This document shows, one piece after another, positions 10,294 to 53,382 of a DNA stretch of 64,000 nt. The notes under the pieces were generated by a model that had not been told where the DNA came from, did not search any database, and worked only from the letters and a program-made list of their open reading frames with translations. The number at the start of each line of letters is the position of its first letter. The stretch's first letter is position 1. Position numbers and translations under genes: made by a program. This stretch comes from a virus: positions 1 to 64,000 of IMG/VR virus record IMGVR_UViG_3300032287_004273; one strand, written 5' to 3'.

Positions 10294-13200
10294 TTATATT
10301 AGTTTTCCTAAATTTGCTGCGCTTGAGCATATTTTATTAAATATATCATTTAGATTGGTTTCTGTATAAGCAGTACTACTTATATATATAGTATAAGTTT
10401 CTGGAAATGTTTTTAAATTTTCATCTATAGCATTAGTAATACTGGCGTAATTGTCAAAATTATTAGAGTCAAAAGAAATTTGTTTTGAAAACGAATATAC
10501 TATTGACGTTGAAGGATTTAAATTTTTTAAAAGATCCTTTATGATTGGTGGGCCTTGTTCAACAAATACTGTTGTGTATAAATCTTTCGTAGTAAATTTT
10601 GCATTATTTTCCAATAAATCATAAAATTCATATACTTCATAATCATAAGTATAAATTTTTAATTCTTCGTAATTGTTATCAGCTTGAATAAACTTATACA
10701 CATCACAAGTTCCAGTATTAGTGACTAATGTAGAATGAGGTTTTAAATTATCTGTATATGAGTACGCCTTATTTGGCAGTATTTTATAAGTAGCTTCAGT
10801 TGAAGTTGGTACACTTTCTGCACATTCAGTTAATTTACTTAAACTAAAATTATAAGAGCCGTCAAAATATTTTTGAAATATATCGTTAGTTAAAATAAAT
10901 GTTGATTTTTTAGTAGATGCGTAATTATCAATTCTATCTCTAAAATAATTAATATCTTCAGTCGTTAAATAACAACTTCTTAAGCCAATTAAGCTATTGC
11001 TGGCATCATAAATTTTCTTTACTTTAGCCCCACCTCCATACGGATTAGTCCAAGCCGTACTTGAAATTGGATTTTTTGTTTCATAAGGCAAGTAACTATT
11101 GAAAAATGAAGTTTGAAAAACGCATGTAGGATTACTGACTCTTGTGAAAGAGCCTGCAAAAATTTGATTTATATCTTGAGTTAAATAATTTGTTTCGAGT
11201 GTAGTTGTATTTGGTTTATAAGAGCTTCGCCTTATAAGGTAAATTTTTTGAGAATTATAATTCATTCTCTTAAAATAAGATGATAAAAAATTACGACTAT
11301 TTACATTTTTTGAACTTGAAACAACATTTGAATAAGCGTTTCTACCCAAATCTAATAATGCTTTTTGATTTACGGTGCCATAAATATCAAATTGGTAAGA
11401 TTTAAAAACTGTATCAGATTCAGTTTCTCCATATTTTTCATATCCAGTTTCGACCTCTAAAGAAACTACTGCAGGTAATTTAGCTCCAGCACCAATTTGC
11501 ATTTGGCTTTTTAAAATTGCTTTTTTATCGGCCTCTGAAAGAGATTTTGCAGTTTCGTTTCCACTAGTTAAATCTTTATCAATAAACTGCATGTCCAAAG
11601 TATTACCTACATTAGTTGCGCTATCAATTGTTATGTTTTCATAAAATGAATAAAGAAAAATAATATCGACATCATTTCTTAAAATATAATCTGAATTAGT
11701 ATTTGCTAAATAAATTGAATTTACATTATAATAATTTTTGCTTGCATCTCCAAAAACATTAAAATAAGTTGGATTTAAATTAATTTCATCTTGAGAGTAA
11801 TAAGGCATTAAATTACTTTTTATTGCATTTACTTCATAAAGATAAACGCCATTCAATAAATTTGAATTTATTTGTTGGGTTGAATTTAAAAAAGATTCCA
11901 AAATTAAAGAATCTTTTGTTCCATATACAAGGCCATTTGTAGTATTAGTTAATACCGTCTTAAAGGCTGGAAAATATGCGTCATTATTATTTTTAAATGC
12001 ATAATTTTGCAAGAAAAATTCTAATCCATCCAAAGTTAATTTTCCATTAACAAAATACTGAGTAAAACTAGATAAATATGAGTAATTGATTGATAAAAGA
12101 AAAATTGGCTCAAGTGATTCAGTAGTTAAGTAAATTAGAGTGCCAGAAGTAAAAGTTTGGTTTGTCGCAATAGGAATTGTTATATATTTATGTACGTTTG
12201 GATATTTTTCCGCAGAATAATTCGGTGCGTATTGATTTTTTTTATTTTCTGGAACATATTGATGATAACTATTTACAACCGTATCAGCATTTAAAAAAAT
12301 TACTTTTAAATTTAAATATGGAATAATATTAATTCCCACAATTGCTCTATGTCTTAATTCATTGGATTGAGGTTGAAATATAGAATATTGAAAAGTTAAT
12401 AATGAAAAAGAATAACCTGGAATTGATGGAGAAGGAGTAATTCCAGCCGCTTCAATCGAGAAATATGAAGTAGATAATATCTTAGCATTAGCTGGCAATC
12501 CATAACAATAATAAAGAAATCCATTTTCATCTAATGTTTTTAATTTTTGCTCAAGAGATGCGGGGCTATTTGAATAAGCGCTAGTATTAAAAGAATACAA
12601 CAATGCCGAAGAGTCTGAATTCGGAATTGAGTAATACATTAAGTTGCTATTTGAGGTTAAATCATATTTATTTACTCCTATATAAGTACTTGGATCTGTA
12701 AATATTGTTGAAAAAAGTCTTATTGCATTTCTATATGGAACATTATTTTGATCAGCTTTTGTTATACATTTATAATTTATTACTGCTGATTCTTTAGTAT
12801 CAGCACCATCTAAAATATATGCATTTTCTTTATTTTGTCCATATATTAATAAATATTTAGTAAGAGTCGTATTGCTTGTTGCATTATCTATTTTGGATAA
12901 AGTTCCAGCAAGTTGAGAATACGTTTTTCCTCCCAATGGAACGCTTGGAGTTCTAGCGTATTTTACTATTTTATATTTTGAATCTGTTACGATTGAAGTG
13001 CCTGGCTCTGATTCAAATTTACTAGCTAAATCTATATGATTTGTATCGCTAAGTGAATTTACCGCAATAGAAACATATACTTTTTCTACGTTATCGTTTG
13101 CTATATAATGAGTTACTGGAATAGCTTCTTGACAAGATCTTTGCGATGTAGCTTTGTCAAAGCTTGCATAATTAACTTGAATATTTCTTATAATATAAGG

Positions 13201-19844: not shown

Positions 19845-20111
19845 ATGAATGAAGAAATCCCTACAATCAGCGAGGCAATTAGCAAAGCGAACTCAGCTCA
19901 AGTAGATTGCCTTTGGGCCATCTTGAAATACAAGGAAATTGGTATCTTGCGCAAAATCAAGTGTATGGCCGAAGTTCTTAATTTTGATCTAGATTTAGCT
20001 TGCAAGGAATTGCCAATTAATGAAAATGGCTTTATCGTAGATTATAAAAGCCGTCATATGATTCATGATATCCTTCTTGATAAGTCAAAACAACTTGCAG
20101 GAAGAAATTAA
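19845..20111 (+). CDS. Hypothetical protein
   Basis: ATG downstream of TTGACT-N17-TATTAT. Confidence 0.65.
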   Translation: MNEEIPTISEAISKANSAQVDCLWAILKYKEIGILRKIKCMAEVLNFDLDLACKELPINENGFIVDYKSRHMIHDILLDKSKQLAGRN

Positions 20112-20115
20112 AAAA

Positions 20116-20340
20116 ATGGAAGAAAAGTCAGTTCCTCAATTTGACGAGTTGCTTTCTGTCGTAAGTTACGAGATCCTTGATGGTAAGGACGAATACGTAA
20201 CTTCTTACAGTGCCGATCTCAAAAAAAATACGAATGGTCGTCTTGATGGTCTAAAAATGGCTAAAGATACTCTGAGGTATCGTCCAGATTATAGACTTTA
20301 TGAAGTATATTCTAATGGGTATAGGAAACTGATTGATTAA
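20116..20340 (+). CDS. Hypothetical protein
   Basis: ORF directly before the tRNA cluster. Confidence 0.6.
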   Translation: MEEKSVPQFDELLSVVSYEILDGKDEYVTSYSADLKKNTNGRLDGLKMAKDTLRYRPDYRLYEVYSNGYRKLID

Positions 20341-20346
20341 TTTAAT

Positions 20347-20422
20347 CGCAGGTTGGACAAGAGGTTAAGTCGTTTGGCTCATAACCAAAAGATCGGGGGT
20401 TCAAATCCCTCACCTGCAACCA
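20347..20422 (+). tRNA. tRNA-Met(CAT), initiator-like
   Basis: Cloverleaf; anticodon arm TTTGG-CTCATAA-CCAAA; T-loop TTCAAAT; C1:A72 mismatch; encoded CCA. Confidence 0.9.
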
Positions 20423-20584
20423 CTTTCGAGTAACCACAAACCCACTGGTAGTAGGAGGGGCTGTAATTGGAATGTAGCAGCCTGTAATTCCTGCTCGAAA
20501 GCGACACATGCCTCTCTGTGAATACGGGGTGCTTGGTCTGGGTTTCCAGACGCTGAGTTGTGCGACTAATCGGAGAGACGATTA
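20423..20584 (+). ncRNA. Unassigned structured RNA, copy A
   Basis: Stem CTTTCGAG/CTCGAAAG, internal hairpins, terminal TAATCG-GAGAGA-CGATTA hairpin; motif order shared with copy B. Confidence 0.65.
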
Positions 20585-20593
20585 TAATCAGTT

Positions 20594-20707
20594 CCCCCAA
20601 TTGGGGTGCGACACCTGCTGGTGGCTCCATGCCGCCAGACTTGATTTGGCATAGCACCTGATGCTTACGCTGGGTTGGGTCAATGGTGTGACACTGGGAG
20701 AGACTAG
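20594..20707 (+). ncRNA. Unassigned structured RNA, copy B
   Basis: CCCC-AATT-GGGG hairpin, GCGACACCTGC, ACGCTGGGTTG, terminal CTGG-GAGAGA-CTAG hairpin. Confidence 0.6.
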
Positions 20708-20717
20708 AAATTTTAAT

Positions 20718-20804
20718 AGGAGTGCGGCGAAGTTGGAGAGTCGCAGCAGACTGTAAATCTGTTACCTTTTGGTTGAGTCCGTTCGAATCGGTCCACTCCT
20801 ACCA
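20718..20804 (+). tRNA. tRNA-Tyr(GTA)
   Basis: AGGAGTG/CACTCCT acceptor; GCAGA-CTGTAAA-TCTGT; long variable arm; CCA. Confidence 0.92.
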
Positions 20805-20807
20805 TAT

Positions 20808-20879
20808 TCCTGTGTAGCTCAATGGTAGAGCGCCTCGCTGTTAACGAGGATGTTGTAGGTTCGAGTCCTACCGCAGGAG
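20808..20879 (+). tRNA. tRNA-Asn(GTT)
   Basis: TCCTGTG/CGCAGGA acceptor; CCTCG-CTGTTAA-CGAGG; no encoded CCA. Confidence 0.93.
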
Positions 20880-20900
20880 CTTTTTTGTGTAAAAAATTAG

Positions 20901-22031
20901 ATGCAAACTTTCACTGAAAAATGGACTGATCTACATAAAGAAGTAGATTTAAATTTACTAAGCAATAATTCTAATGAAGATGGTTTTGTTAGAATGGACT
21001 TGGTAATGCCCAAATTATATACTCCGAAACATTATTTAGCAACAAATGGATATTTAAAAGATCGAAAATTTTCAATAGATATAAACGGTTCTAAAAAAAC
21101 GTCAAACGGAGAAGTTTATTTGAAATATGGATATTTTGTAATGAACAATGTTCATTTTTCAGATCAATATTTTTTTATAAAAGAAAATAAATATCAAGAT
21201 TACAACTTTGGAATCGTTGACAATAATCCAGAAAAATCACTTGGACGTTTTTTGCCAGAGGCAGAAATTAAAAAAGATTTAAATCAATCAATAATAATTG
21301 AGGAACCTTGCTTTTTATGCTTACCCTCTAGGGGTCACTACCCAAATTATGGGGCATTTTTAACCCAAGTTACAACTCAAATTCATGAGTTTAGAAAAAT
21401 TAATAAAACAATAAAAATTGCAGTAAATAAAACTTTAAAATGGCAAAATGCTGCATTAAAATATTTTTTTCCAGATTTAGATTTTATTGAAATTGATATT
21501 TGGCCAATGAAAAATAGTATCTTTTTTAAAAAAATTGTAATACCTTTTGCAAAAAACGCTACTATTTTATCTAAAAACGATATAGATTTTTTTAAAAAAA
21601 ATAGCTTTCATAAAGATTCGAATCGAAGAATTTTCTTATCAAGATTAAAACAGAATGGAAGAAAATTAGTGAACGAAGATAAGGTTGTTGATTTCTTAAA
21701 AAGCAAAAATTTTGAAATTATCTTCCCAGAAGAAAAAGATACTCGACAAATTTCAGAAATTTTAGGCGAAGCGGAATATGTTTTTGGAACTGGTGGAGCT
21801 GGAATGTTCAATTCCATATTTTGCAAACCAAATACTAAATTTCTATCGATAGAAGGCGGAAGATGGGCAACCGTACATTCAAAAATGTTTAGTGCAATTG
21901 GATTAGACTATTCAATAATACAACCGCACCCAACCTTACCCTTAGATCAAATTAAAAATTTGGGACAATGTGAATCTTATGTTAATATTGATGAGTTTAT
22001 TAATTTCGTAGAAACAAATTACAATTTGTAA
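20901..22031 (+). CDS. Glycosyltransferase family 61-like protein
   Basis: NYGAFL, RIFLSR...RKLVNE, FEIIFPE, GAGMFNSIFC. Confidence 0.8.
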   Translation: MQTFTEKWTDLHKEVDLNLLSNNSNEDGFVRMDLVMPKLYTPKHYLATNGYLKDRKFSIDINGSKKTSNGEVYLKYGYFVMNNVHFSDQYFFIKENKYQDYNFGIVDNNPEKSLGRFLPEAEIKKDLNQSIIIEEPCFLCLPSRGHYPNYGAFLTQVTTQIHEFRKINKTIKIAVNKTLKWQNAALKYFFPDLDFIEIDIWPMKNSIFFKKIVIPFAKNATILSKNDIDFFKKNSFHKDSNRRIFLSRLKQNGRKLVNEDKVVDFLKSKNFEIIFPEEKDTRQISEILGEAEYVFGTGGAGMFNSIFCKPNTKFLSIEGGRWATVHSKMFSAIGLDYSIIQPHPTLPLDQIKNLGQCESYVNIDEFINFVETNYNL

Positions 22032-52905: not shown

Positions 52906-53253
52906 TTAAAGACAAGGGTGGAAAGCAAGATCTACATCCTTGCGGTGATATTCTTCAGATAGAATGCGCTTTGTCAAGACAATTTCCACCTTGCCAAATG
53001 GATAAACATATATCTCACCATAAGTGCCAGCGCCCATATCGAAATCTGGATAATGCTCCTGTAACAAATGTTCAATTTCATCTTGATAGATTGGAGCAAC
53101 TTCTTTACTGGAAACGAGTTTGTCCCCAAGCGCAAAGTACACGCAGGAATCAAACCAATGAGTACAGGAATCCTCAGAAGTCCAGTGATAGATTGCGTAC
53201 TTTAGATCACGACTCTTTAGAACCTCAACAAGATCAAGCAATGTCTTTTCCAT
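52906..53253 (-). CDS. Hypothetical protein
   Basis: ATG after TTGCCT-N16-TATGAT. Confidence 0.65.
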   Translation of the reverse strand: MEKTLLDLVEVLKSRDLKYAIYHWTSEDSCTHWFDSCVYFALGDKLVSSKEVAPIYQDEIEHLLQEHYPDFDMGAGTYGEIYVYPFGKVEIVLTKRILSEEYHRKDVDLAFHPCL

Positions 53254-53382
53254 ATGCGTCACATCATAAACAATCTTAGCGAGAAGGCAACATTTATTTC
53301 AAAAATATTTACGCACTTGTGCGTAATAACACTTGACAGGGAGCCAGGGCTACCCCTGGGGCGTAACCACCTCATTCTGAGG

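Follow-up and report, generated by a model that had tools for sequence, protein, structure and literature searches.

The first 64 kb of the viral record IMGVR_UViG_3300032287_004273 (IMG/VR; 79 kb in all, estimated to be 55% complete), the stretch analysed here and referred to as the window, carry a tRNA cluster in which the genes for tRNA-Met and tRNA-Tyr are set apart by a spacer of 295 nucleotides (nt) at 20423-20717. The stretch is found mostly in metagenome runs from lakes and other fresh water. As a preliminary description of this DNA had pointed out, the spacer is richer in GC (50-55%) than its flanks (about 30-37%). It is a non-coding RNA assembled from portable parts, namely a domain of 79 nt and, behind it, a widespread and uncatalogued module in two copies (Table 1). 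A protein-coding reading of the same letters, as a 48-amino-acid (aa) open reading frame (ORF) at 20508-20654, is ruled out by insertions and deletions in relatives and by changes that follow the stems.

The two homologous units (about 20501-20584 and 20608-20708) each have a pseudoknot at their core, a feature that had escaped the preliminary description. Each unit consists of an H-type pseudoknot (GCGACACNUGC ... AGUNGUGYGAC) and then a hairpin with an invariant GAGAGA loop. With the 5′ motif written as G1 Y2 G3 A4 C5 A6 C7 N8 U9 R10 C11 and the 3′ motif as A G U N G U G Y G A C, stem S1 comprises G1-C11 and Y2-R10 and pairs across the 5′ strand of stem S2, in which A4-N8 pair with N-G-U-G-Y of the 3′ motif (elsewhere ACGCC/GGCGU); loops of a single nucleotide, G3 and U9, connect the two stems. 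Loop 3, which ranges from 3 to about 65 nt, ends in AGU and can hold optional hairpins, two per unit in the window. On the 3′ side of S2 stand GAC, usually an A, and then hairpin 2, with 4-6 base pairs (bp) closed by G-C beneath the GAGAGA loop. Both window units have the two motifs with S2 pairing, S1 as G-C and C-G (G1-C11 and C2-G10 in unit 1, where (A4)C5-A8 supplies the 5′ strand of S2) and a GAGAGA hairpin directly after GAC(A). The motif pairs on which the preliminary description had built its two units are all present, with GCGACACATGC at 20501, GCGACACCTGC at 20608, ACGCTGAGTTG at 20550, ACGCTGGGTTG at 20667, TGCGAC/TGTGAC, and the terminal hairpins TAATCG-GAGAGA-CGATTA and CTGG-GAGAGA-CTAG, and a repeat search returns the same pairs. 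Because the G-U pairs in the last stem of unit 2 (CUGG/CUAG) work on the plus strand only, the element must be an RNA rather than a DNA signal.

Table 1. Features of the tRNA-Met/tRNA-Tyr spacer and its neighbours in the window
Feature	Position	Strand	Basis and remarks
tRNA-Met (CAU), encoded CCA	20347..20422	+	ARAGORN; Rfam tRNA, 62.2 bits; 3′ end abuts the 5′ domain
5′ domain	20423..20501	+	79 nt; fold z-score -2.7
Unit 1, 5′ motif G1-C11 (GCGACACAUGC)	20501..20511	+	motif match; covariance model
Unit 1, variable insert (pseudoknot loop 3)	20512..20555	+	fold; compensatory changes in relatives
Unit 1, 3′ motif AGUUGUGCGAC	20556..20566	+	UGUG 20559-20562 pairs with C5-A8 (CACA), then invariant GAC
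Unit 1, hairpin 2 (UAAUCG/GAGAGA/CGAUUA)	20567..20584	+	motif, fold and model; stem covaries family-wide
Small hairpin CCCC-AAUU-GGGG (CCCCAAUUGGGG)	20595..20606	+	fold; one nt (U20607) ahead of unit 2
Unit 2, 5′ motif GCGACACCUGC	20608..20618	+	S1 and 5′ strand of S2; motif match; model
Unit 2, variable insert	20619..20682	+	fold
Unit 2, 3′ motif AAUGGUGUGACA	20683..20694	+	GGUGU 20686-20690 pairs with ACACC 20611-20615, then GAC and A
Unit 2, hairpin 2 (CUGG/GAGAGA/CUAG)	20695..20708	+	G-U pair forms only in plus-strand RNA
tRNA-Tyr (GUA)	20718..20804	+	ARAGORN; Rfam tRNA, 39.8 bits; begins 10 nt past unit 2
tRNA-Asn (GUU), final gene of the cluster	20808..20880	+	ARAGORN; Rfam

The two units are almost certainly real members of a real and hitherto undescribed RNA family. 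Covariance model R1 was made from 15 minimal units that came from unrelated viral contigs and not from this phage. Its matches in the window are confined to 20493-20586 (36.1 bits, E 2.4e-8) and 20600-20711 (37.8 bits, E 8.6e-9), and the rest of the 79-kb record yields none; such matches lie far beyond chance. Applied to 100 viral loci, R1 gives 99 matches in 65 of them. Five relatives found through a neighbouring protein of 222 aa (65-97% identical) have the same tRNA-Met/tRNA-Tyr spacer, with invariant motifs and compensatory changes in the stems, and two of the five carry a third, minimal unit. Pairs were counted over the 99 model hits (93 distinct sequences): paired cells amount to 90% (74% in shuffles), the covariation score of 0.38 compares with 0.11 in shuffles and is attained by none of 500, and pairing falls to 24-46% when the partner is slid by 1-3 columns. 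Pair 1-11 occurs as GC 70 times, as AU, CG and UA once each, and is unpaired once; pair 2-10 is CG in 62 cases, UA in seven, UG in three, GU in two and unpaired in two. Each of the four variable pairs of hairpin 2 shows 26-52 double changes, S2 changes across the family from AU to GC and from CG to AU, and position 3 of the 3′ motif changes together with position 8 of the 5′ motif (A-U in unit 1; C-G in unit 2 and in locus L005). The model and the pair counts thus bear out what had been proposed from the letters of the two units, namely two homologous structured RNAs with genuine covariation on the plus strand, and the search for homologues extends the family to phages, plasmids and bacterial genomes.

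The family is missing from the resources that were searched. At the gathering score Rfam 15 recognises tRNAs alone in the window, and at E up to 10 it places nothing over 20423-20717, so that the spacer belongs to no known Rfam family, in keeping with the preliminary description, which had found none to assign; a plasmid copy and a capsid-linked copy are also without an Rfam 15 match. Searches of the literature by motif strings and by topic returned nothing relevant, and the two 5′-motif strings were absent from it altogether. Among 50,697 cultured phage records, only the tRNAs were matched by the window stretch, and about 16 records gave partial matches when a minimal unit served as the query.

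Outside the core, the parts of the spacer are conserved in their own ways. The insert of unit 1 folds into hairpins P2 (20514-20529, with a GAAU loop) and P3 (20536-20551), and its GACYGGG...CYCGGUC type of hairpin recurs in many other units. That of unit 2 holds a hairpin at 20618-20638 with a conserved top, GGCUCCAUGCC, which also recurs in many units, and a long G-U-rich hairpin whose pairing is preserved in L008 by changes from G-U to A-U; the small CCCC-AAUU-GGGG hairpin ahead of unit 2 is present in L008, L009, L022 and L120 as well. The strings CTTG and ACGCTG(A/G)GTTG, counted in the preliminary description among the shared elements, are indeed common to both units, but they lie in the variable insert, outside the core of the family.

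The 5′ domain is a separate, independently conserved family and no part of unit 1. Three elements make it up: a closing stem (20424-20432/20492-20500), an ACCA/UGGU hairpin that does not vary, and a distal stem with UGUAAUUGGAAUGUAGCA as its equally invariant loop. When 15 loci are aligned, both partners have changed in 8 of the 21 pairs, four of them in the closing stem and three in the distal stem. About 22 viral loci contain the domain, usually just after tRNA-Met (it begins right after that gene in at least nine related loci) and just before a unit of the unit 1 type, with the module usually 38-41 nt past the start of the domain's 16-mer; three or four loci have the domain without a directly following module. 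A resemblance to the anticodon arm of tRNA-Tyr was considered and rejected, as it is not preserved in relatives. The hairpin that the preliminary description placed at the 5′ side of each unit holds up as a rule of position: the 5′ domain before unit 1, the small hairpin before unit 2 and a bulged hairpin just ahead of the module in bacterial copies suggest that a helix regularly abuts S1. As a part of unit 1 it does not stand, the letters at 20423-20501 being the separate domain. L253, L257, L263 and L264 have the 5′ domain and one or two modules immediately ahead of a phage transfer-messenger RNA (tmRNA) gene, which follows the 16-mer at about 134 nt.

The module is portable among phages, plasmids and chromosomal islands, and it occurs only in non-coding parts of transcription units, often in tandem. 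A tRNA gene is present in only 15 of the 65 viral loci that carry it; where one lies within 500 nt, it is on the same strand as the module (19 of 19 hits), and the next tRNA typically begins 4-10 nt beyond the module (at least eight loci). The commonest single context, in 21 contigs of uncultured phages, is a portal gene, a scaffold gene, a gene for an SU10-type major capsid protein (PF17236), an array of modules that starts at a median of 13 nt past the capsid stop codon, and two conserved ORFs. LUZ24, a distant cultured relative with the same portal-scaffold-capsid order, has an annotated rho-independent terminator in the slot of the module. Arrays reach five copies (L050). Cultured carriers include Phaeobacter phage MD18 (MT270409.1), in which a single unit scoring 51 bits (about 12766-12837, minus strand) fills the 80-nt gap between two tRNA-Leu genes, and, with weaker variant forms, Cronobacter phage CS01, Acinetobacter phage Alexa (after the integrase gene) and Pseudomonas phage Medea1. 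A pseudoknot so close behind a stop codon could serve recoding by frameshift or read-through, a role that was rejected: 9 of 15 capsid-linked loci have an immediate second in-frame stop, all frames are soon closed in most of them, and no ORF precedes the units in the window.

Several phage loci have peculiarities of their own. In L017 (7778-8085), L040 (6870-7030) and L085 (13810-14132), the capsid gene is followed by one or two modules and, 4-10 nt on, by a lone tRNA-Met; by analogy with mascRNA at MALAT1, an RNase P cut at this tRNA could form the 3′ end of the capsid mRNA. Medea1 (L132 2190-2860; MW862109.1 39443-40113) holds its variant module, which has a GGAAAGAC loop, in an unannotated gap of 770 nt near cI, and a tRNA-like 3′ end (GGTTCGAATCC ... 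CCACCA) stands about 300 nt past the module; either a non-coding RNA of larger size or the tRNA fragment of an attachment site may be present here. L086 has a Hammerhead_II match (11570-11632, minus strand) that exceeds the gathering score with 43 bits; a two-module array is found 7.4 kb away from it on the same strand.

A stricter pattern finds 94 loci in one-genome-per-species bacterial records, many of them from Marinobacter, Microbulbifer and other Pseudomonadales, with further labels from Cyanobacteria, Acidobacteriota, Bdellovibrionota, Chloroflexota, and Alpha- and Betaproteobacteria, at least five phyla by label; some of these copies may be phage contigs binned into metagenome-assembled genomes. 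No copy detectable by BLAST is present in 5,426 complete E. coli genomes. The bacterial copies are single, minimal units, found either where two genes converge or ahead of a gene for a primase, replication initiator, nuclease or antitoxin, the next ORF being convergent in 38 of the 83 loci for which a downstream ORF was called. On a Sedimenticola plasmid, the module lies 50 nt past trbI and ahead of a small ORF. All eight genome loci with an upstream tRNA have it on the strand of the module, and this strict co-orientation, in viruses and bacteria alike, together with the G-U pairs, indicates an RNA that is read on the plus strand. In L183 (Salicola sp.), on what appears to be core chromosome, rpoD, tRNA-Met, about 250 nt, the module (about 2896-2931) and a canonical intrinsic terminator follow one another in an arrangement that looks like an ordinary small-RNA gene. 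Two Marinobacter modules are followed by transposase genes of the IS1595 family of insertion sequences (IS), one 113 nt downstream (L158 5399-6373) and the other 266 nt downstream (L139 6410-7384). The module is not an IS1595 passenger in Marinobacter, as the IS copies stand at differing distances beside it and are absent in other strains, and IS1595 insertion may favour sites just past the structured module.

The RNA of the spacer is probably expressed and excised. Two metatranscriptome runs from two studies contain short contigs over 20441-20583, 20554-20650 and, from a relative with an insertion, 20466-20651; contig depth is zero on the flanking coding regions (20000-20340 and 20900-21200), in contigs that give no ends, strand or RNA levels and whose gaps are uninformative. 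The contigs fit a spacer RNA that outlasts the neighbouring mRNA, of which they give a weak hint, and the spacer RNAs are plausibly processed from the tRNA precursor. We picture the module as a self-contained fold that phages and other mobile elements would set into the non-coding parts of strongly expressed transcripts. In the window, its two units would be co-transcribed with the tRNAs; RNase P cleavage at the 5′ end of tRNA-Tyr would form the 3′ end of the spacer RNA, a host endonuclease cutting after tRNA-Met or in the short U-rich linkers would form its 5′ end, and what is set free would last as a stable small RNA or as several. A tertiary core built from about 15 invariant unpaired nucleotides would make the fold resistant, and the module would define or protect RNA ends, a part taken past the capsid gene of related phages by a terminator hairpin.

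That the module acts in this way, as a punctuation mark that defines or protects ends or as a stability element, is the reading we tentatively prefer while putting its chances short of even. It is suggested by placement: after stop codons, in the slot of the LUZ24 terminator, before the 5′ ends of tRNAs and at convergent operon ends. Several points weigh against it or against the observations from which it starts. A plain exonuclease barrier does not need some 30 nucleotides that are near-invariant over several phyla. Copies in Salicola and Marinobacter pelagius have a canonical terminator within 10-25 nt behind them, so that the module is not needed there for protection of the 3′ end. Many bacterial copies lie 15-45 nt ahead of a Shine-Dalgarno sequence and start codon, where a leader fits as well as a trailer, and the arrays of several copies also fit a dosage-dependent decoy. 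The metatranscriptome runs were selected for holding part of the stretch, and their contigs are assemblies in which DNA carry-over is possible. Finally, the viral loci were fetched by the pattern GTGYGAC-N(3-9)-GGAGAGAC, and the invariance of GTGYGAC and GGAGAGAC in the resulting alignment is partly due to this construction. Conservation is backed independently by the relatives found through their protein, by the 5′ motif, which is outside the pattern yet was found in about half of 120 loci, and by weaker hits that carry GGAAAGAC or GGAGAGUC loops.

Each of the rival explanations accounts for part of this pattern. Released modules could act in trans, as aptamers that titrate a conserved partner. 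This might be a protein of the host or the phage, for instance RNA polymerase, a ribosomal factor, a ribonuclease or a nuclease of a defence system, or else a small molecule, for example a nucleotide signal. The combination of roughly 15 invariant unpaired nucleotides and a near-invariant pseudoknot with a freely varying hairpin 2 stem is typical of binding pockets, and the slots that the module occupies (the 3′ untranslated region (UTR) of the capsid gene, tRNA arrays, the position just before tmRNA) are highly expressed, so that the strongest late transcripts and tandem copies, up to five in L050, would raise the dose. The module with its canonical terminator in L183 and L197 resembles a small-RNA gene, and the spacer RNA seems, from the metatranscriptome contigs, longer-lived than the flanking mRNA. 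There is, however, no candidate partner; single chromosomal and plasmid copies beside ordinary genes suit the dose argument poorly, the spread over at least five labelled phyla would demand a nearly universal partner, and the E. coli genomes lack a detectable copy. We regard such a decoy or sponge as doubtful, if a serious contender. It is distinctly unlikely, in our estimate, that the module is a new class of small self-cleaving ribozyme, which would cut phage and mobile-element transcripts at fixed points and so free tRNAs, end the capsid mRNA or uncouple read-through RNA. Its compact pseudoknot, its invariant junction nucleotides, a site that tolerates optional stems, tandem intergenic arrays in phages and tRNA neighbours are all habits of the hammerhead, twister, pistol, hatchet and theta ribozymes; the topology, in which a hairpin loop pairs with a downstream strand and a second hairpin follows, resembles pistol, and self-contained activity without a host partner would fit the spread across phyla. 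On the other side, no Rfam ribozyme family (hammerhead, twister, pistol, hatchet, HDV-like) is matched at E up to 10, a conserved cleavage dinucleotide was not found, the arrays in 16 loci examined have no hammerhead or other ribozyme beside them, and the contigs from RNA libraries run unbroken through unit 1 and across the border between units 1 and 2, which, if they derive from RNA, argues against fast and complete cleavage.

A signal to RNA polymerase in cis, either an unusual terminator or insulator at mobile-element borders or a processive antiterminator like HK022 put, appears very improbable. RNA polymerase is conserved enough to explain the invariance of the module, which occupies the slot of the LUZ24 terminator, lies 130-320 nt inside from tRNA genes and faces inward in several bacterial loci, and in some arrays is followed by a U run after the last copy (L104). 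Only 35 of 162 hairpins (22%) have U4 within 14 nt, though, and the tail is not conserved; a terminator scan of the window flags neither hairpin 2, its sole plus-strand match (20618-20638) being P2 in the insert of unit 2. A terminator would moreover silence the downstream tRNAs, of which the window has two on the same strand and which also follow the module in MD18, and real terminators stand behind the module in L183 and L197. Antitermination fares no better, as the arrays of L015, L104 and L105 close operons opposite a convergent gene and leave nothing downstream for antitermination to reach, and put RNA consists of two stem-loops with a triplex and has no pseudoknot (PMC9378689). Taken more broadly, the module would be a new functional class of RNA that works without a host-specific partner, whether as a self-cleaving ribozyme or as a tandem aptamer that sequesters some conserved small molecule, for instance a nucleotide signal of immunity. 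We consider this unlikely; it would account for a core that hardly varies over several labelled phyla, for stems that are optional and copies in tandem, and for the confinement to mobile DNA.

Likenesses to known RNAs are partial. The preliminary description had likened the spacer to the stable RNAs of the T4 tRNA cluster, and rnaC and rnaD of T4 (species 1 and 2) are likewise two adjacent small non-coding RNAs in a phage tRNA cluster, on the tRNA strand and presumably cut from the precursor. A common family confined to tRNA clusters does not follow: rnaC and rnaD, annotated next to tRNA-Arg, have no motif (by eye) or fold in common with the module, rnaC ends in a tRNA-like T arm and an acceptor-like stem, R1 finds no match in the T4 tRNA region at E up to 10, and most copies of the module, unlike the T4 RNAs, lie outside tRNA clusters. 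Pistol (RF02679) shares a pseudoknot between a loop and a downstream strand followed by a hairpin, a home in phage-like DNA and a small number of invariant unpaired nucleotides; the module differs in having no Rfam match, no enclosing P2 helix and other conserved nucleotides. Exonuclease-resistant RNAs (xrRNAs) in the 3′ UTR of flaviviruses are conserved pseudoknots, present in duplicate, that come immediately behind the stop of the main structural ORF. They halt 5′-to-3′ exonuclease, shield the RNA downstream and yield a stable non-coding RNA. The module is like them, by analogy, in its tandem pseudoknots after a structural-gene stop, and its fold is different; many of its hosts (Marinobacter, Pseudomonadales) are not known to have a 5′-to-3′ exonuclease of that kind. 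ROOL and GOLLD, structured RNAs of phages and prophages that often lie beside tRNA genes, are in Rfam, but they are several hundred nt long and single-copy, and the window spacer matches neither there. ToxI of type III toxin-antitoxin systems consists of tandem repeats of a short pseudoknot RNA, which phages can copy as decoys. Its direct repeats are near-identical, 34-45 nt long and beside the toxin gene, whereas the module has units of 45-110 nt with varied inserts, no linked toxin gene and one core sequence over several phyla. Phage HK022 has putL and putR, short RNAs with two helical elements that need no protein cofactor. Put RNA is V-shaped, with two stem-loops, a triplex in stem I and no pseudoknot, and lies just downstream of the early promoters (PMC9378689). 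The module, by comparison, folds as a pseudoknot with a hairpin and is frequently found at operon ends.

The core of roughly 45 nt recurs nearly letter for letter in phages of about 30% to nearly 70% GC, in plasmids and in bacterial records, which implies strong selection for a specific fold or interaction. In phages, the module occupies the region behind the capsid gene and the tRNA arrays, the two non-coding sites with the heaviest transcription. Mobile elements may therefore use it as a general means of shaping their RNA, be it through ends, stability, cleavage or the titration of host factors, and the module bears on the long-open question of what purpose the stable RNAs of phage tRNA clusters serve. 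Function can be tested directly in cultured carriers, which exist in Phaeobacter phage MD18, Cronobacter phage CS01 and Marinobacter strains.

Two further features do not belong to the core: by eye, the GAGAGA loop could pair with a pyrimidine-rich 5′ flank (UUCC, CUCC) in some units but in neither window unit, and a tRNA-like ACCA tail occurs in about 10% of copies only. The second tRNA cluster of the window has no module by R1 in the gap between tRNA-Arg and tRNA-Leu; these 477 nt hold an ordinary ORF of 118 aa (52906-53262, minus strand) and not a structured RNA. In the capsid-linked arrays of L015 (8492-8602) and L076 (4746-4856), a long conserved insert (AUGUGACCGUUCCCGCAG...) stands between the first pseudoknot and hairpin 2, and the linker blocks UCGUCGGCAACGCGAC and UUUUGUGCAAGC recur on the 3′ side of other units, so that the arrays hold more conserved pieces.

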